26,150 nucleotides of DNA from a virus. Lineage: Duplodnaviria > Caudoviricetes. Location: positions 1-26,150 of IMG/VR virus record IMGVR_UViG_3300028594_000087; one strand, 5' to 3'. The notes beneath the pieces were generated by a model. That model was given only the letters and a program-made list of their open reading frames with translations. It had not been told where the DNA came from and searched no databases. Within the stretch, counting starts at the first letter, position 1. The number at the start of each line of letters is the position of its first letter. This document shows positions 5,796-26,090 of this stretch, one piece after another. The position numbers were made by a program, and so were the translations under genes.

Positions 5796-5818
5796 CGCCC
5801 CACTCCTTTCTTATTTAT

Positions 5819-6172
5819 CTATTTTGATTTTTTCTTATCTAGCCAACGTTGCAACGCTTTTTGTTGTACCATTCTAGTGGCACGTGCATGCTTACGTTTT
5901 TGTTTTTTATCATACTCATAGCTTGATTTAGATTGATTGATCAACGCACGTTCTTCTTCAATCTTCTTACTAATTTGTTTAACGTTCTTACCATTATTCA
6001 ACTGAGCAAACATGATTGATTGAGTACGCATATCCTCTAAACCATCTAATCGTCTATGCCTAGCACCTTTTATCATCTGTTCCCACTCGTGTGGAGTGAG
6101 GAGTTCTAATTCAGGTACAGGAATATAACCGATTAGTTGTATGGTCTTTTCAATTACATAGTCGAAATCTAA
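5819..6172 (-). CDS. Tail assembly chaperone C-terminal extension (gpT-like), probably expressed by -1 frameshift from the upstream ORF
   Basis: Frame LDFDYVIEKTIQLIGY...LTPHEW begins at the upstream stop in the -1 frame, with no obvious RBS/start there; position between chaperone and TMP. Confidence 0.8.
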   Translation of the reverse strand, partial: LDFDYVIEKTIQLIGYIPVPELELLTPHEWEQMIKGARHRRLDGLEDMRTQSIMFAQLNNGKNVKQISKKIEEERALINQSKSSYEYDKKQKRKHARATRMVQQKALQRWLDKKKSK

Positions 6173-6666: not shown

Positions 6667-6696
6667 GTTTTACAAATCCCTTCAAAATAGATAAAT

Positions 6697-6720
6697 AAAA
6701 AAGAGTGGCATACGCCACTC
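6697..6720 (-). terminator. Intrinsic terminator after major tail gene
   Basis: Minus strand GAGTGGC-GTAT-GCCACTC followed by TTTTTTATTT, 6 nt after the stop. Confidence 0.85.
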
Positions 6721-10460: not shown

Positions 10461-10678
10461 AACCACCATGTACGTATAGTCCATAGTGTTTGCATAAATT
10501 TACGTAAAGATACGCATTAAAAATAGACCTTTTAACGTCTTGTCTAGGACGAGCTGTAGTTACAGCTATTAAGATACTGGCATTGCTGATGAGTTATTGT
10601 TCGTCATCATAGCCCAGACCACCTCCTTAATGAGTTTTAGTGCTTGTATTAATAAAGCATCACTCCCTTCAGTGGTCT
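10461..10678 (-). ncRNA. Candidate structured cis-regulatory RNA upstream of scaffold-capsid genes (several hairpins and an H-type pseudoknot)
   Basis: Stems AGACCAC/GTGGTCT, TGCTT/AAGCA, TGATGA/TCATCA, AGCTGTA/TACAGCT, CGTC/GACG crossed with TAGAC/GTCTA, and CACTATG/CATGGTG, all within about 220 nt. Confidence 0.5.
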
Positions 10679-12015: not shown

Positions 12016-13360
12016 TGCCAGTCACCACCAGCTCATCATTCATTTTTTCGATTTCGTTTTCTGCATCTTCAATCAAGTTAGATAAATCATAACGAGAAGA
12101 GTCTGAAATTTGACCGTTTAACGTACTTAATACTTGCGCTTCTTCTAACTTATTGACTGGAATGTTACGTTTCCACTTGAAACTCACGTTTAAATAGTCT
12201 AAATCTCCACCAGAACGCTTACTTTTACGTTTCCATATGCTATACAACACTTTAAATTGATAACGCAGTGCGGCGGTCATTTTACGTTCAAACGTGATGC
12301 ATTTATTTTCTAAAGCCATGAGCTTTAAGTGCATACCAATCACAGGTACGTTCCCGTTAAACTCATCACTGTTAAAGTTGACTGATTTAGCAAATCGCAT
12401 GATGTTTTTTTCTAGTCTGTCTAGATGATTCTCAATCATGGTGTCATTCACATCTTTAGTTAGGTACTTCACATCCTGCTTTTCATCGTACAGTTCAAAT
12501 GCACCAGATTCTTGCAAGTCTTGAATTTCATCTGAATCCATACCCAATCCACGTAACACCAGGTATGCTAATCGTGTTTGACTAATTTCAGATGATGCAT
12601 CAGATAGTGTTCTATCGTAGCCATCTATTAGAGACAACACTCTTTCAGTATCTCCGATTAATTCTTCGTTGTTCGGTACACCGAACAATGGATTGTAATC
12701 AGATAAATGAGATTTTTTTCCTTTAAAGTGCATACTACGTTCTCCACCAACATAGGTGTGATAGTGTGATTTGTCATAAAAATCTGCATGCCACGTTTCT
12801 TTCTTAGTCGCCTCATCTACAACGGGGTAGTAATGCAAGCTATATTCAGGCTCTGACATATCTTCGCCTAAGAACATTACATTATACGGTTTAAGGTTCT
12901 TAATACGCTCATTGCCTTCTTTGTCGATGTAGATAATCCTTGCAGCATAGCCACATATCGCAGCCATCTTTCCAAGCTCAGAATCTTTATCAGGTACGTT
13001 GTTCATCAAGCTAAACTGTTGAATAAGTTTCGTTTCTTCATCATCTTCATCACGATAGACAATCGGCACACCATGCATGTAACCAACTCTTGTATCTACA
13101 ATTTCCACATCAAACGCATTGTTAAGTTTGTTATTAACGAATTGGTCAATACGTTTCACATTTCCACCAGTTTCAAAATCCTCATACTGCTTAACAGGGT
13201 CGTGCCTAAAAACAGGAATTGCATCTTGTTTAGCTTGATAGCGTTCGTACAAGTTAAACATTCGCCTACGATTATCTTTATTTAGCTCAATCATCTGTTC
13301 TATATGTTTTGGCTGTACACCATTTTTTTTAATATCTTCAATCAGATCTGGTACGTTCAT
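11981..13360 (-). CDS. Portal protein (SPP1 gp6-like)
   Basis: 459 aa after terL; NNKLNNAFDVEIVDTRVGY, LIDGYDRTLSD and KYLTKDVN motifs. Confidence 0.95.
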   Translation of the reverse strand: MNVPDLIEDIKKNGVQPKHIEQMIELNKDNRRRMFNLYERYQAKQDAIPVFRHDPVKQYEDFETGGNVKRIDQFVNNKLNNAFDVEIVDTRVGYMHGVPIVYRDEDDEETKLIQQFSLMNNVPDKDSELGKMAAICGYAARIIYIDKEGNERIKNLKPYNVMFLGEDMSEPEYSLHYYPVVDEATKKETWHADFYDKSHYHTYVGGERSMHFKGKKSHLSDYNPLFGVPNNEELIGDTERVLSLIDGYDRTLSDASSEISQTRLAYLVLRGLGMDSDEIQDLQESGAFELYDEKQDVKYLTKDVNDTMIENHLDRLEKNIMRFAKSVNFNSDEFNGNVPVIGMHLKLMALENKCITFERKMTAALRYQFKVLYSIWKRKSKRSGGDLDYLNVSFKWKRNIPVNKLEEAQVLSTLNGQISDSSRYDLSNLIEDAENEIEKMNDELVVTGNDDTGTDRQED

Positions 13361-14608
13361 CTAGGCACCTCGTTTCATTTTATCTTTCTTACGTATACGT
13401 TCCATGCTGTAGCGTAACGCATCTAGAAAGTGGTTATATTCATCAATTGGTTTATTAATTGGCTCATCGTACTTGTTGGTGTCCCACACATAGTTTGATA
13501 GCTCATTGATTGCATTTACACATCTAGGATGTACAAATATGGTGTACTGCTGAATGTACTGAATGCCATTTTTAATACTGTCAGGACCTTTTTCAGCACG
13601 TGCAACCTTACGTAAACCGTACCGTCTTAAATCAACTATTGATTTAGGCTCTGCACTGTCTGCGATAATCAATTCCTTGCCATAACCTTTGTCAATTACT
13701 CGTTGAGCAATCTCATCGTTCAGTAATGCTTTTTCGTATAACTCATCAAAGATGTATAACTCTCTATTCGGTATATCTACTAAAGCACAACTTAGCGATG
13801 TCGGGTCGTTCGTAAATCCGAAGTCCATTCCAAAAGCAGATACAACGCCTGGTCGCTTACTGATTTCGTTAGTATCGAATAAGCGTTCATGCCAGTTTTC
13901 GTATATGCCACCTTCGGCAATTCCCCATTCTCCTAATCCTTCAATTTTGTATCGTCTAGGTGATTTTATTTTCATTTCTTCAAACAACGATATATCTGCA
14001 TCATCCAAGAATTCATTACATAAATAGTTTGTTGTCTTAGTAAATACATTCGGACTGTCTGATTTAAAGAATCGCTTATTTAACCAATGCTTTTCACTCC
14101 ACGGGTTAAACGTCAAAGTAATTTGTTTGAACAATCCGCCTGTATCACCACGGATTGACATATCTATCTTGTTGAAGTCATCCTCTTTTCTGACTTGGAA
14201 CGCTTCTTCAAACCAAGCCCAACATAGATAACCATGTTCAACCGTCGCTGATGTCACACTCATTGGATCATCAAGCCCACGGAATAATATCTTCTGACCT
14301 GTAGAACGTCTTACAACTTCCATAGGAGAGACCTTCCAATCGAACTCATCATACACATGTAATTGCCGTGCAGCCCACTTTAACTGCGAGTAGGTACTAT
14401 CCTTATGGTCTTTAAATACTTGTCTTATCACTAGTAGGTTCGCTTTCGGATACCTTATCATCCTGTACATAAAATTAAGAGCGGTTGTAGTAGACTTTTT
14501 GCTACCACGACCGCCCTTTAATACTCTATATCTATGCTCACTATTCCAAAAATCCCTATAGCCCTCTCCAACTACTTCTGATATTCGAACACTATTTGTA
14601 GTCGTCAT
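13361..14608 (-). CDS. terL: Terminase large subunit, PBSX family
   Basis: Walker A KGGRGSKKS, WFEEA, TFNP, nuclease GMDFGFTNDP, ADSAEPKSI and NHFLDALRY. Confidence 0.97.
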   Translation of the reverse strand: MTTTNSVRISEVVGEGYRDFWNSEHRYRVLKGGRGSKKSTTTALNFMYRMIRYPKANLLVIRQVFKDHKDSTYSQLKWAARQLHVYDEFDWKVSPMEVVRRSTGQKILFRGLDDPMSVTSATVEHGYLCWAWFEEAFQVRKEDDFNKIDMSIRGDTGGLFKQITLTFNPWSEKHWLNKRFFKSDSPNVFTKTTNYLCNEFLDDADISLFEEMKIKSPRRYKIEGLGEWGIAEGGIYENWHERLFDTNEISKRPGVVSAFGMDFGFTNDPTSLSCALVDIPNRELYIFDELYEKALLNDEIAQRVIDKGYGKELIIADSAEPKSIVDLRRYGLRKVARAEKGPDSIKNGIQYIQQYTIFVHPRCVNAINELSNYVWDTNKYDEPINKPIDEYNHFLDALRYSMERIRKKDKMKRGA

Positions 14609-15102: not shown

Positions 15103-15110
15103 CAACAAAC

Positions 15111-15135
15111 AAAAAAGACACCTTAATTGGTGTCT
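15111..15135 (-). terminator. Intrinsic terminator after moron gene
   Basis: AGACACC-AATTAA-GGTGTCT followed by TTTTTGTTT, 8 nt after the stop at 15144. Confidence 0.85.
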
Positions 15136-15143
15136 GAGTAATG

Positions 15144-15569
15144 TTATAGCTTTATAAAATGTTTTAAATTCTCTTTATGCATAGATTTCTCTTTCTTTAT
15201 TATCAATGTTTTCCCATTCGCATCTAAGTAAGTAACTTTATTTGGATGAGCTTCATATGGATCCCTTTCAAATGATACCTCAGATTTCATAGGCTTCTCA
15301 TAATAATTACAGTTCAACTCTTCACCTTTATTTATAACTTCAACGAATGATTCATTTTCGACTTTAATTACAGCTCTGTCATCTTCTAAGAAAATAGCTT
15401 TTGCTTTATCGATATTTATATATTCTTGATTCAGCAAAGAATGTAGATCATCTGAAATATCAGCTTTGTCTAAGTGATAATCTATGTTCTTACTTTCTAC
15501 TTTTTTTCCGCAACTAATATTAAATAATCCTAACAACTTTTGCCAATTACTGATAGATTTATCTTCCAT
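15144..15569 (-). CDS. Hypothetical 141-aa protein, moron-like
   Basis: RBS AAAGGGAG before ATG 15569; AT-rich; has its own promoter and terminator; no recognisable motif. Confidence 0.8.
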   Translation of the reverse strand: MEDKSISNWQKLLGLFNISCGKKVESKNIDYHLDKADISDDLHSLLNQEYINIDKAKAIFLEDDRAVIKVENESFVEVINKGEELNCNYYEKPMKSEVSFERDPYEAHPNKVTYLDANGKTLIIKKEKSMHKENLKHFIKL

Positions 15570-15598
15570 TTTTAACACTCCCTTTATTTGATACATCC

Positions 15599-15607
15599 AA
15601 TATACCA
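15599..15607 (-). promoter_or_regulatory. Extended -10 promoter for the moron
   Basis: TG-G-TATATT about 30 nt upstream of the ATG. Confidence 0.6.
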
Positions 15608-15631
15608 AATAAACCGCCCTTTCGGACGGTT
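15606..15631 (-). terminator. Terminator-like hairpin
   Basis: AACCGTCC-GAAA-GGGCGGTT followed by TATTT (imperfect U tract). Confidence 0.65.
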
Positions 15632-15712: not shown

Positions 15713-15760
15713 ATTGTACAATACGTTCTCTCAAACCAGGTAACTTATCAAATTTATCAA
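15713..15760 (-). promoter_or_regulatory. Putative RinA-activated late promoter
   Basis: Direct repeat TTGATAAAT-TTGATAAGT (15743-15760) just after the rinA stop, -10 TACAAT (15713-15718), no consensus -35. Confidence 0.7.
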
Positions 15761-15779
15761 GTAGTTTCTGTGGATAACT

Positions 15780-16205
15780 CTAATCTTTTAGTATTTCTGC
15801 TATCTCTAATTGAATCTGATGTACTCGTTGTGGTGTGCATTGTAGTATTTTGCTGATGTGTTCATAAGTATATCCTTTTAATCTATAGTGGAATACCAAA
15901 CCAAGTTTTTCGTCTGAACGTTCAATAATTCTATCCCAGCGATTCTGAATATATAGAACCTTGTTCTGTATCCGATCAATACGTTTATCTCTTTTGATTT
16001 GTCGGTTCACTTTTCTAAAGACAGGGTCACTGTTTCCTCCAACTGCTTTCGGCATTGCTGCTTCAAGTCCATACATAGCGATATTGCCGCCAAGTATTTC
16101 ATCATAGTATTCCTTATTGAGTTCTATTAAATGTTTGAGGTTTGAATGATAATTATTAATCAATTCCATAATCTTTTCGGTCGTATATTTAGTCGCATAA
16201 CTCAT
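15780..16205 (-). CDS. rinA: RinA/ArpU-type late transcription activator
   Basis: Last early gene before the packaging module; IAMYGLEAAMPKAVGGNSDPV motif and C-terminal sigma-4-like HTH (GYTYEHISKILQCTPQRVHQI). Confidence 0.8.
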   Translation of the reverse strand: MSYATKYTTEKIMELINNYHSNLKHLIELNKEYYDEILGGNIAMYGLEAAMPKAVGGNSDPVFRKVNRQIKRDKRIDRIQNKVLYIQNRWDRIIERSDEKLGLVFHYRLKGYTYEHISKILQCTPQRVHQIQLEIAEILKD

Positions 16206-16212
16206 AAATCAT

Positions 16213-16695
16213 CTACACCTCTTTTAAGTAGTCTAACGGTTTGCCTCCACCTGTTTTTATTAACGTGGCATGTTTTTTCATCCATTCATATGGAATGCTC
16301 TTACGGTCTGCTGTGCGCTCATATTCAAGGTATTTATCAATGGTCAGTCGATAACACTCTTTGTAATCAGTAAAATAGATGATTAGGAAAGCTAAGTGTC
16401 CGAGTTCCTGTACTTTCTGTAAGTAATTCTTTTGGTGTTCAGACACGTTATTAAATGGAAAACTTTTCTTAGCGGTTTGCTTAGCATCAAATGCAATGAA
16501 TGGTCCATTATTGATGCATCCAATGTAATCTACAGTACTTTTCTGTTTATAGAACGCCTTACCTGTTCGTGTGTTGTAATTGATTGGTGTTGCTACCTTA
16601 TCCACCAACGCAATATTCTTATTCTTATAAACAATGTTGGTGCGATCAATTATATCTTCGAGGAATTTCCCTCTGTTAGCGTATGTTCGTTGCAA
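16213..16695 (-). CDS. recU: Holliday junction resolvase RecU
   Basis: YANRGKFLE, KVATP, KSTVDYIG, AFDAKQT, EHQ and RKSIP motifs. Confidence 0.93.
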   Translation of the reverse strand: MQRTYANRGKFLEDIIDRTNIVYKNKNIALVDKVATPINYNTRTGKAFYKQKSTVDYIGCINNGPFIAFDAKQTAKKSFPFNNVSEHQKNYLQKVQELGHLAFLIIYFTDYKECYRLTIDKYLEYERTADRKSIPYEWMKKHATLIKTGGGKPLDYLKEV

Positions 16696-21046: not shown

Positions 21047-21790
21047 CTAGAATCCTAGATGCTCTGTTAAATCTTTTTCATATTGACTGTTTAGATCTAT
21101 GCCATCGTTCCCACGTAACTTAGACATTTTCTGTTTAGCTATATTCTTGAACTCGTCTATATCTAAATAAGATTGATTATTTAAGAATGTTGTTGGATAA
21201 CGCTGGTACTGTTTATCAGTTACTGTTTGTAAATAAGCTTTTGTTCCTTCTAAAATTTTTTCGTAACCATGTTCCTTATGACACTTTTTAAATACAGTAA
21301 ATGATTTCTTTTTATCTAGTTTTTTATCGTAAAGATTCCACCATTCTTCAAAGTCAGATTCAATCGCATTTTCTAAATGCGCATTACTATTTGTATTATT
21401 ATTATTTGTATTATTAATAGATGTATTATTAACTTCATCATTTTCTAAATAGGGGTGTTTAATATTCTTAATAGGGTCATTTAATTTATTAACTAGGGTG
21501 TTTAATTTATTAACCACCTTTATCGTTCTTTTTTTGACCTCTTTACCTTCGTATTCAAAAGTTACTTCAATTAAATTTTTCTCATACAGTCTATTAATGA
21601 TTTGAGAACATCTTCCTTTGGATATTCCGAAGAAATCGGCAAAGTGTTTATTGCTTGCAAAGCATCCCTTTTCGTTATCTAAACTATCTATTTCTACTAG
21701 AAAGAGTTTCTCCATGACACTTAATTCTTCGTTTAGCCAGACTTCTTTAGGTATCCAGATTCCTTTAAATGCTCTGTTCATTTTTTTCAC
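21047..21790 (-). CDS. Replication initiator / replisome organiser (N-terminal winged HTH)
   Basis: FKGIWIP, GCFASNKHFA, Asn-rich linker and C-terminal FEEWWNLY...YPTTFLN; directly upstream of the loader. Confidence 0.9.
   Translation of the reverse strand: MKKMNRAFKGIWIPKEVWLNEELSVMEKLFLVEIDSLDNEKGCFASNKHFADFFGISKGRCSQIINRLYEKNLIEVTFEYEGKEVKKRTIKVVNKLNTLVNKLNDPIKNIKHPYLENDEVNNTSINNTNNNNTNSNAHLENAIESDFEEWWNLYDKKLDKKKSFTVFKKCHKEHGYEKILEGTKAYLQTVTDKQYQRYPTTFLNNQSYLDIDEFKNIAKQKMSKLRGNDGIDLNSQYEKDLTEHLGF
21382..21514. repeat. Putative replication origin: three 21-22 bp iterons plus AT-rich unwinding element
   Basis: TAGGGGTGTTTAATATTCTTAA (21450), TAGGGTCATTTAATTTATTAAC (21472), TAGGGTGTTTAATTTATTAAC (21494); TGTATTATTA three times in 21382-21433. 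Confidence 0.8.
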
Positions 21791-24714: not shown

Positions 24715-25218
24715 TTATATCCTCCTTTGCATTTTCAGACGGGCATCTCTGTTCGCATTAAGCTGTTGCGGTGTGAGTCCGTAGTCATTGATTAAGCAAT
24801 TTACAAAGCTAGTACCTTCAAACAGCACATCTTGTAATTCAGCTATCATGAGCTTGAGTCCTTCAAGTTCCTGATCAGTTGTATGTTCAGGATGTTTGTC
24901 TAAACAATTTGCCTTGAGTACGCTCATGAATTCTTCTATCTCACGTTCGATGCGGTACATGAACGCTAGTCTGTGACCATCGTATACTCTGTCTGATGCT
25001 GTTGGTTGTGCGTACCCCTCTGTCATCTCGTACGCCACATCATTGAGCATCTGAGCATCTCTAGTGTTATTCAGTGCTGCACTGTACATCATCTGTGTGA
25101 GTGGTTTCTGTCCGCTTTCCACTCGACTGATGTATGATTTATCAACGTGCAGTTCATTCGCTACATCCTGTTGCGTTAAATTGTTTCTTTTTCTATAACT
25201 TGCAATTACATTCGCCAT
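24715..25218 (-). CDS. XRE-family HTH regulator with helical C-terminal domain
   Basis: RKRNNLTQQDVANELHVDKSYISRVESG; start moved to ATG 25218 after GGAGG. Confidence 0.88.
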   Translation of the reverse strand: MANVIASYRKRNNLTQQDVANELHVDKSYISRVESGQKPLTQMMYSAALNNTRDAQMLNDVAYEMTEGYAQPTASDRVYDGHRLAFMYRIEREIEEFMSVLKANCLDKHPEHTTDQELEGLKLMIAELQDVLFEGTSFVNCLINDYGLTPQQLNANRDARLKMQRRI

Positions 25219-25234: not shown

Positions 25235-25287
25235 ATCAATTTCTAATTGATTGTTGATTTGATTAGTCGTTATACTCTATTTAGAGT
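25235..25287 (+). promoter_or_regulatory. Counter-oriented sigmaA-like promoter with overlapping palindromes
   Basis: TTGATT (25247-25252)-N18-TATACT (25271-25276); inverted repeats ATCAATT-tct-AATTGAT (25235-25251) and ACTCTA-tt-TAGAGT (25274-25287). Confidence 0.6.
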
Positions 25288-25360
25288 TAATTAAGTTAGT
25301 CGCATAACTGATAACTCATTGGTAAGGCTAGTTGGTCGCTAGTCCTTACCGCCTTCTATT
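25283..25360 (+). ncRNA. Candidate two-hairpin sRNA antisense in trans to the rinA start region
   Basis: Hairpin 1 GAGTTA..AGTTA-GTCGCA-TAACT..TAACTC; hairpin 2 GGTAAGG-CTAG-TTGGTCG-CTAG-T-CCTTACC; 25296-25319 matches 16189-16212 at 22/24. Confidence 0.6.
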
Positions 25361-26090
25361 CAGCTGTCCGTTCCTCTTCGGATTCAGCTAACTCTAGAGT
25401 TATTTGTCTTGTTTTCATTAATGTTGCTGTAGACGGTGTCCACTGATTGATAAAGTCGATAACAATATTGAAATATTTTTGTCTTAACTGAGTTCTAGTT
25501 TTGATATCAGCTACATCATTCACACCGTGATTAATATCTTTATATAGTGCTGATCTAACTTCTTTAGTGTTCGCTAGTGCAAAAGCATTGATAGTATTAG
25601 CAACCGTTCTATTTACTTGTCTTGAAATATAGGAATACTCCCCTGCTTCAAGCTTCACTTCTTCTTTTAAATAAGTGACATCTTTCTCAACTGTTTCTAC
25701 TCTTTCAGAAGTTTCTTTTAATGCTTTAAATTGAAGTTCCAACATTTCCATTGGACTTTTAGGTTCTTCATACTTCCCTGTCTTTCTGATTTGTGGTAAA
25801 ACTTCAGAAGTTACCCACTTTTTAAAACGTTTTGCAGATTCTAGTTGGCTACCAAAAATAAGAGCATATAATCCAGATTCATTGATGATGTATGTTTTTC
25901 TCATTTGACCTGAGTCGGTGATTCCCCTACTCAGCTTATCTTCTGTATCAACATGTCTTTTTAAAGCATCACTTGTATCCTTGTAACCTAAAACTTTCGC
26001 TACATCTTTTCCGACAAAATATGGTTCATCTTCGATAGTCAAAGTTCTTACATTATTTTCTTCAAAATTAAATACTTGTAATTTATTCAT
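25356..26090 (-). CDS. ant: Phage antirepressor (BRO-N + ORF6C-like domain)
   Basis: PYFVGKDVAKVLGY, INESGLYALIFGS and AKRFKKWVTSEVLPQIRKTG; C-terminal ALYKDIN...FINQWTPS. Confidence 0.93.
   Translation of the reverse strand: MNKLQVFNFEENNVRTLTIEDEPYFVGKDVAKVLGYKDTSDALKRHVDTEDKLSRGITDSGQMRKTYIINESGLYALIFGSQLESAKRFKKWVTSEVLPQIRKTGKYEEPKSPMEMLELQFKALKETSERVETVEKDVTYLKEEVKLEAGEYSYISRQVNRTVANTINAFALANTKEVRSALYKDINHGVNDVADIKTRTQLRQKYFNIVIDFINQWTPSTATLMKTRQITLELAESEEERTAE

Follow-up and report, generated by a model that had tools for sequence, protein, structure and literature searches.

The window, that is, the whole stretch of 26,150 nucleotides analysed here, is a 26-kb piece of a temperate phage, and its minus strand carries every gene from the antirepressor to the tail. 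The nearest named relative for the region of the RNA and its target is prophage L005 of Jeotgalicoccus marinus; the body of its RNA and its target are identical to those of the window, yet its activator is 57% identical. The following features lie around the target gene:

15780..16205, minus strand: ltrC, late transcriptional activator of the LtrC family, 141 aa (PHROG 1058; profile match to phage 55 ORF34)
16177..16183, minus strand: possible second seed at +23..+29, able to pair with loop 2 through a match that includes one G-U pair; lost in some relatives
16189..16212, minus strand: target site, −7..+17 of ltrC, directly past the recU stop codon (alignment)
16216..16221, minus strand: Shine-Dalgarno of ltrC, GAGGTG, within the 3′ end of recU (sequence)
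16213..16695, minus strand: recU, Holliday-junction resolvase, upstream neighbour of ltrC (profile matches)

The start codon of ltrC is the ATG at 16205–16203 of the minus-strand ORF 15780–16205. The 141-aa product matches PHROG 1058 and shows a weak C-terminal match to a sigma70 region-4-like HTH. An earlier note on this DNA had named the gene rinA, which is wrong; the target is ltrC, because the LtrC type member, phage 55 ORF34, is matched by a profile built from 12 homologs (hhalign 96.9%, E 1.7e-10, 83 columns), and 80alpha RinA is not (7.7% with the same profile). No RinA model in NCBIfam or PHROGs matches the window activator, and its homolog P0011 matches PVL orf61-like proteins. LtrC has been defined as a family of late activators that includes a Macrococcus member, and from this family membership and the position of the gene we infer a late-activator role for LtrC of the window (available part of PMC3753634).

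Between ltrC and terS there is one ORF of 154 aa (15144–15608, minus strand), which belongs to no known family. A terminator-like hairpin with a T run lies at 15110–15135, 3′ of this ORF, and therefore terS may require its own promoter or read-through. Right past the ltrC stop codon, two 7-nt direct repeats (15745–15760, minus strand) are candidate LtrC binding sites, and a 9-mer at 15769–15777 (minus strand) matches the DnaA-box consensus. Immediately past the recU stop codon, within 16189–16212 (minus strand), an out-of-frame ATG opens a frame of 7 codons that overlaps the ltrC start and ends in the seed.

The second set of features lies at the far end of the early region:

24715..25218, minus strand: XRE-type HTH gene, 167 aa, PHROG 1124; it runs divergently from the RNA promoter and is tightly linked to it
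25247..25252, plus strand: predicted −35 hexamer TTGATT, with TTGA invariant in 14/14 aligned window-clade copies
25271..25276, plus strand: predicted −10 hexamer TATACT, 18 nt past the −35, with key positions fixed in 14/14 copies
25283..25360, plus strand: predicted small antisense RNA of ~75–80 nt, both ends inferred and the 3′ end uncertain
25284..25317, plus strand: hairpin 1, whose loop GUCGCA (25299–25304) is the seed and is predicted to be unpaired
25296..25319, plus strand: segment complementary to the ltrC start region at 22/24 (alignment)
25320..25351, plus strand: hairpin 2, with a nearly invariant UUGGUCG loop (25332–25338) and a freely covarying stem
25350..25356, plus strand: 3′ tail, predicted by co-folding to pair with the ltrC Shine-Dalgarno across hairpin 2
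25356..26090, minus strand: Bro-N/ORF6C antirepressor gene (ant), with its stop codon at the predicted 3′ end of the RNA; not a fixed neighbour in relatives

On the plus strand, 25296–25319 and 16189–16212 are identical at 22/24 positions, the first 14 of them contiguous, so that the match described in the earlier note, spanning −7..+17 of the activator ATG, was reproduced. The two mismatches lie opposite the G of AUG and at position −3; a G facing the G of AUG is retained in every lineage, and this mismatch counts against a pairing sRNA. Apart from one repeat within the tape-measure gene, this is the only direct 24-mer pair of at least 22/24 in the window, and ~0.035 such pairs are expected per window (independent-base, both strands); the match by itself is modest evidence. 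As direct repeats, the two sites are unable to pair with each other in a single transcript, so that an RNA from the opposite strand is needed. As for other repeats in the window, inverted 24-mer pairs at 21/24 occur at 5804–5829 and 6680–6705, which flank tail chaperone genes and are probably terminator-like, and at 13946–13970/19369–19393; repeats spaced by 15 bp at 21388–21432, in the replication initiator gene, are likely origin iterons or a low-complexity linker.

The main evidence comes from relatives. The segment −7..+17 of each ltrC homolog was searched against its own locus in 51 loci (the window, 7 named genome loci, and 43 IMG/VR loci). A direct copy of at least 20/24 lies within 10 kb upstream in 31/51 loci, and an inverted copy above 17/24 was found in none of the 51; many Macrococcus matches within 10 kb are an extra target, the RNA proper being at 10–18 kb in longer stretches. 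The RNA is present on 36 of the 44 ltrC-bearing IMG/VR contigs, and the other 8 stop less than 7.5 kb upstream of ltrC. RNA and target are 9.1 kb apart in the window and about 9–18 kb apart in relatives, and all copies share one orientation. Four sequence types can be told apart (window/Jeotgalicoccus, Salinicoccus, Macrococcus, and Mammaliicoccus), and in the prophages of all these genera, which were assigned from record titles and protein names, the element is placed against the early operon. The RNA of each relative mirrors its own target over 20–24 nt, including the non-coding spacer from the Shine-Dalgarno to the AUG, and from one lineage to the next both partners change in step; between the window-type and the Salinicoccus-type pairs, compensatory intermolecular changes are seen at +5 and +16. 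Two findings count against the sRNA interpretation: in three Jeotgalicoccus loci the RNA is of the window type but meets its target with a C-A mismatch at +5, and the many loci collapse to about four independent sequence types. A short imperfect complement to a distant mRNA is kept by covariation, as is the case for trans-encoded sRNAs. The earlier proposal that the intergenic sequence downstream of ant covaries with the first codons of the cognate late activator holds for the four sequence types; the part that made ant the neighbour does not hold, since the neighbour is the HTH gene.

The distribution of the pair appears to be limited. No start-site copy was found in phages 55, 80alpha, phi13, phiRS7, 2638A, IME1354_01, and CBP1 (7/7, best 15–17/24), and no comparable copy is present among the Bacillaceae-type LtrC loci listed. 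When named phages were searched by blastn with the RNA region, 4 matches at chance level came up, and 151 sampled genomes, a set with no positive control included, gave no match to the Macrococcus-type RNA model. A scan for the two-loop pattern was rejected as an RNA finder, being too loose (about 1700 estimated stretches). In the distant LtrC loci L063, L060, and L019, ribosome-binding regions are duplicated 6.8–7.8 kb upstream; these duplications look like paralogous gene starts, not hairpin RNAs.

The element itself has properties expected of an RNA. Among the 14 entries listed as sequencing runs matching a Macrococcus-type locus, none was an RNA data set, and four of these runs showed DNA-like contigs only, which says nothing about expression. 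The promoter-like plus-strand site TTGATT-N18-TATACT proposed earlier is indeed present just upstream, but in the window alone such a site is not above chance (3 found vs 5.5 expected), which counts against the sRNA. Among 14/14 window-clade copies, the first T, second A, and last T of the −10 are fixed, and the spacer sequence drifts while the spacing of 18 nt stays constant; TATACT is invariant in 15/15 Macrococcus copies. The Mammaliicoccus and Macrococcus types have their own conserved −10 boxes, and a promoter signature is present in all three alignments. The window hairpins fold with −25.8 kcal/mol (z −4.8), and hairpins 1 and 2, with GUCGCA as the loop of hairpin 1, fold as had been claimed; the UUGG of hairpin 2, described as a YUNR-type loop, fits YUNR, by sequence only. 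Every type has 2–3 hairpins with loops of the UU(G/A)GUC(G/A) type. Hairpin 2 shows two-sided changes in 11/13 pairs (11 sequences), and stem covariation amounts to two-sided changes in 11/19 pairs (11 sequences) and 7/28 pairs (10 sequences); the covariation score was reached by 0/500 shuffles, and slid controls were far lower. The Mammaliicoccus set has one-sided stem changes only. As to the 3′ end, no intrinsic terminator was found in the window, and the window clade is likewise without one, which counts against the sRNA and bears out the earlier caveat that this end is uncertain; the Mammaliicoccus type has a terminal hairpin with a U-tract in 8/8 aligned copies.

The antisense strand folds more stably than the sense strand in 18/18 copies (z −3.3 to −6.9, 2–5 G-U pairs each). 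The copies are related, and therefore these 18 folds count as three or four lineages, not as 18 trials. Secondary structure is thus conserved on one strand, as expected of a trans-encoded base-pairing sRNA, and the promoter signature, stem covariation, and strand asymmetry together point to an antisense-strand RNA. In L340 (9410–9520), a window-type RNA has an additional hairpin between hairpins 1 and 2, which shows the middle to be modular. Rfam gave 0 matches in the window at gathering score; 4 loci spanning three RNA types gave 0 matches at E ≤ 1.

Two other explanations can be weighed here. According to the first, which is very unlikely, the copies would be sense-strand sites for a phage RNA-binding protein, either a translational repressor or an antiterminator, with the hairpin copy in the early mRNA acting as a decoy or as the place where the protein loads. 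All copies are indeed direct repeats on the coding strand, and the sense strand folds too; however, only the antisense strand can form the G-U pairs, its fold is the better one in all 18 copies, and the promoter and U-tract are on that strand as well. The wholesale switches between lineages, while 20–24 nt continue to match, also exceed what a protein needs. According to the second, which is more improbable still, the copies would be operator sites in the DNA, bound by a regulator of the phage, for example LtrC or the product of the neighbouring HTH gene. It has been reported that Ltr proteins bind 7-nt direct repeats (PMC3753634, in the part available), and the 24-mer holds two imperfect 7-nt tandem units, with the HTH gene always close by; but covarying stems around single-stranded loops would serve no purpose in an operator, the 51 loci hold no inverted copy above 17/24, and the Ltr sites known from the same source lie just downstream of the ltr gene, where the window is without a copy of the motif.

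On the target side, selection appears to act at the nucleotide level. Codons 3–5 are identical in 13/13 distinct window-clade ltrC genes, codons 2–5 in 23/23 Macrococcus genes, and codons 2–7 in 6/6 Mammaliicoccus-type genes, with zero synonymous change in the target codons within lineages. From position 15 on, same-residue codon pairs differ in 53% of cases in the window clade, 33% in Macrococcus, and 19% in the Mammaliicoccus type. In L308 the seed is retained though the protein starts in another frame, and in 9 further Mammaliicoccus-type activators, of which 8 are only 32–35% identical to the ninth, the start cassette is kept, in one of them with a single mismatch. Selection that acts on 5′ codons in general could play a part, yet it would not produce a match to a hairpin far away.

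Co-occurrence is consistent with a functional pair. An ltrC-like gene is present in 11 of 45 J. marinus family genomes, and 8 of the 45 match the RNA model; the 8 RNA-bearing genomes are exactly those with a seed-bearing ltrC (8/8 vs 0/37). The three others have near-identical ltrC copies with three different seed changes and no RNA. Two of these three seedless loci were inspected, and both are defective prophages missing the whole early region, so that relaxed selection could have other causes. In these loci (L309 and L310; G005:C21 and G043:C1), the repressor, replication initiator, and ltrC are directly adjacent and the early region is missing; each adjoins another prophage carrying the RNA. 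That the repeated sequence has no regulatory role and arose by chance, through an old duplication, or at a recombination hot spot is the least probable explanation. About 3% of windows this large are expected to hold one such match, and phage modules recombine at short homologies; against this, the pair recurs with different sequences in four types, so that covariation already refutes it, and both the frozen codons and the co-occurrence contradict it further.

The earlier note had treated ant as the linked neighbour of the element, a view that was not upheld: the fixed neighbour is the HTH gene on the promoter side. By motif count, the RNA lies on the opposite strand, upstream of the PHROG 1124 HTH gene, in 46/46 HTH loci; under a strict hairpin-cluster criterion at those loci, the association is found for the Macrococcus type only (25/46). 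Among 61 partly redundant RNA matches, 48 lie within 250 nt of the HTH gene. No second copy of the RNA promoter motif was found in 11 prophage arms, a fold search with the HTH protein gave generic XRE fold matches and none at E ≤ 0.001, and no start-site copy lies beside 3 full-length distant HTH homologs among 78 loci.

Predicted energies agree with pairing between the RNA and ltrC. For 14 same-phage RNA–target pairs, the net co-fold gain ranges from −16.4 to −22.4 kcal/mol, compared with −3.1 to −11.8 kcal/mol when window-clade RNAs are co-folded with targets of the Macrococcus or Mammaliicoccus type, and −0.8 to −8.9 kcal/mol on three seedless targets. Macrococcus RNAs on window-clade targets reach up to −17.6, overlapping the cognate values, which counts against the sRNA reading. 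In an accessibility-aware sliding scan of 816 windows, ltrC is the best site apart from the RNA's own locus, with −19.4 vs a background of −4.3 ± 2.0 and a minimum of −12.5. In the predicted duplex, codons 1–6 and the spacer are paired with loop 1 and with the 3′ arm of the same hairpin, and hairpin 2 stays intact. Hairpin 1 alone supplies −15.6 of the −19.4 kcal/mol net binding, and the 3′ tail contributes about 2.4 kcal/mol. Hairpin 2 with the tail alone gives −4.4 on ltrC, which is background level and also counts against the sRNA, and the invariant loop 2 makes no measurable addition to ltrC binding. The idea that loop 2 generally needs the seed at +23..+29 was rejected, as several relatives are without that seed. 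Another candidate, 10566–10630, seemed a better target by RNAduplex without accessibility (−45.5 vs −43.3 for ltrC) and fell to −9.7 with accessibility.

In two lineages the RNA appears to have more targets. Each of the 9/9 Mammaliicoccus-type proviruses searched holds at least 4 same-strand copies: one follows cro, one is the RNA itself, one follows a small early gene, and one lies at ltrC. In the replication region of Macrococcus prophages, a copy without a hairpin immediately precedes a ribosome-binding site. The extra sites score −17 to −29 kcal/mol, except one at −11.6. In the window and L316, ltrC is the sole trans site, so that the single-target reading of the earlier note stands for the window and does not extend to the Macrococcus and Mammaliicoccus types with their extra early-operon targets. 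The Mammaliicoccus-type provirus L304 has two more strong predicted targets near the ssb end (12417–12482 and 12725–12790, ltrC-oriented). In L480, L491, L506, L524, and similar loci, a conserved sense-strand hairpin follows the post-cro target, its loop complementary to the RNA loops; a second kissing site or an attenuator is possible.

The RNA is also a perfect cis complement of the early transcript at its own locus, with a net −73 kcal/mol. This raises an improbable alternative, in which the RNA would pair with ltrC but would mainly cause the early transcript to be cut by RNase III or to terminate prematurely with polar effects; its overlap in cis, between ant and the HTH gene, would then matter as much as the trans site. 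It has been reported that RNase III acts on such duplexes for OOP (PMC12197685) and RNAIII (PMC4152353), both sources being available in part, and the extra targets lie just past stop codons or upstream of ribosome-binding sites, some beside a hairpin. However, the sole trans site of the window and L316 covers the Shine-Dalgarno, AUG, and first codons of ltrC, the classic place for an initiation block, and a role in cis only would leave the covariation with a site 9–18 kb away unaccounted for.

The claim of the earlier note that an antisense sRNA acts in trans on the late activator is supported by the covariation, the hairpins, the promoter signature, and the strand asymmetry. Judged from sequence, the two-hairpin element is likely transcribed against the early operon as an RNA of ~78 nt, which is predicted to pair with ltrC mRNA in trans and block its translation. 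The conserved sigma-A-type promoter would fire the plus-strand RNA, and the exposed loop 1 would contact the CGACUAA seed in ltrC codons 4–6. Hairpin 1 would then open and pair back over the AUG, and the 3′ tail would cover the Shine-Dalgarno, so that ribosome loading on ltrC would be blocked. Leaky early transcription in a lysogen, or transcription early after infection, would yield no LtrC, and without LtrC the packaging, structural, and lysis genes would stay off or be delayed. On induction, the early transcript, as a perfect complement, would titrate the RNA and release ltrC past a threshold, giving a delay. In Macrococcus and Mammaliicoccus, the RNA type would also strike one to three more early-operon sites.

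A broader and distinctly speculative model treats the multi-loop RNA family as a second immunity layer in Staphylococcaceae and Salinicoccaceae prophages. The RNA would silence the late activator and several early genes through fixed address tags while the genes themselves swap; the linked HTH protein, as an analogue of CII, would switch its promoter, and titration of the RNA by the early transcript would time lysis. If this were true, the RNA could also silence superinfecting phages bearing the same tag.

The control of Ltr proteins has been called poorly investigated (PMC13123087). The published control of ltr acts by cI via the early promoter (PMC3753634), and for Listeria LlgA post-transcriptional inhibition by an unidentified factor has been reported (PMC13123087); each of these sources is available in part. 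No RNA targeting an ltr gene was found in the literature, mostly open-access, including the available parts of PMC5415839 and PMC3074167. The motif was not found in the searched part of the Fremin 2023 supplements, and it could be one of the 10,006 candidates left unannotated in PMC10690425. The element apparently represents a conserved, undescribed family of phage antisense RNAs aimed at a late activator in trans. In many temperate phages of Gram-positive bacteria, packaging and lysis are under the control of Ltr late activators, and such an RNA would account for the frozen N-terminal codons on otherwise divergent activators. The natural cognate and non-cognate RNA–target pairs would be useful for studying specificity, and a search in each phage for a hairpin copy of the start region of its late activator offers a route to more circuits.

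Known systems resemble the window RNA in part. C4 pairs through several loops at separate target sites, a likeness to the present RNA, and is cut from the same transcript as its targets. C4 of P1 and P7 is likewise a phage antisense RNA acting on a phage regulatory mRNA (PMC8201110), but it controls an antirepressor, whereas the window RNA has its own predicted promoter on the opposite strand, a late-activator target, and no Rfam match. P22 sar and lambda OOP are, like the window RNA, short hairpin RNAs directed against the early operon (PMC12197685); they act on the overlapping ant or cII, whereas the conserved partner here is a distant start region and ant is not a fixed neighbour. Within the Ltr superfamily (RinA, ArpU, LtrA–C), the target of the window belongs to the LtrC family and appears to end the early cluster ahead of terS, with the 154-aa ORF lying between the two (PMC3753634). 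S. aureus RNAIII is comparable in mode of action only, as redundant hairpin loops seed pairing at ribosome-binding sites (PMC4152353); it is a long chromosomal RNA with host targets, and no sequence relation to the window RNA is claimed. The closest comparison is lambda aQ (paQ), which, like the window RNA, is antisense to a late-gene activator; aQ lowers Q and favours lysogeny (PMC2327240, PMC12197685). These comparisons draw on the available parts of the sources cited. Lambda aQ is made from a CII-activated promoter, and its proposed action on Q is in cis, whereas the window RNA shares the late-activator target, here LtrC, but is encoded 9–18 kb away from it, not at the target, and pairs imperfectly. 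The element offers a concrete RNA mechanism, in which a trans-acting counterpart of lambda aQ would have arisen separately in Gram-positive phages.
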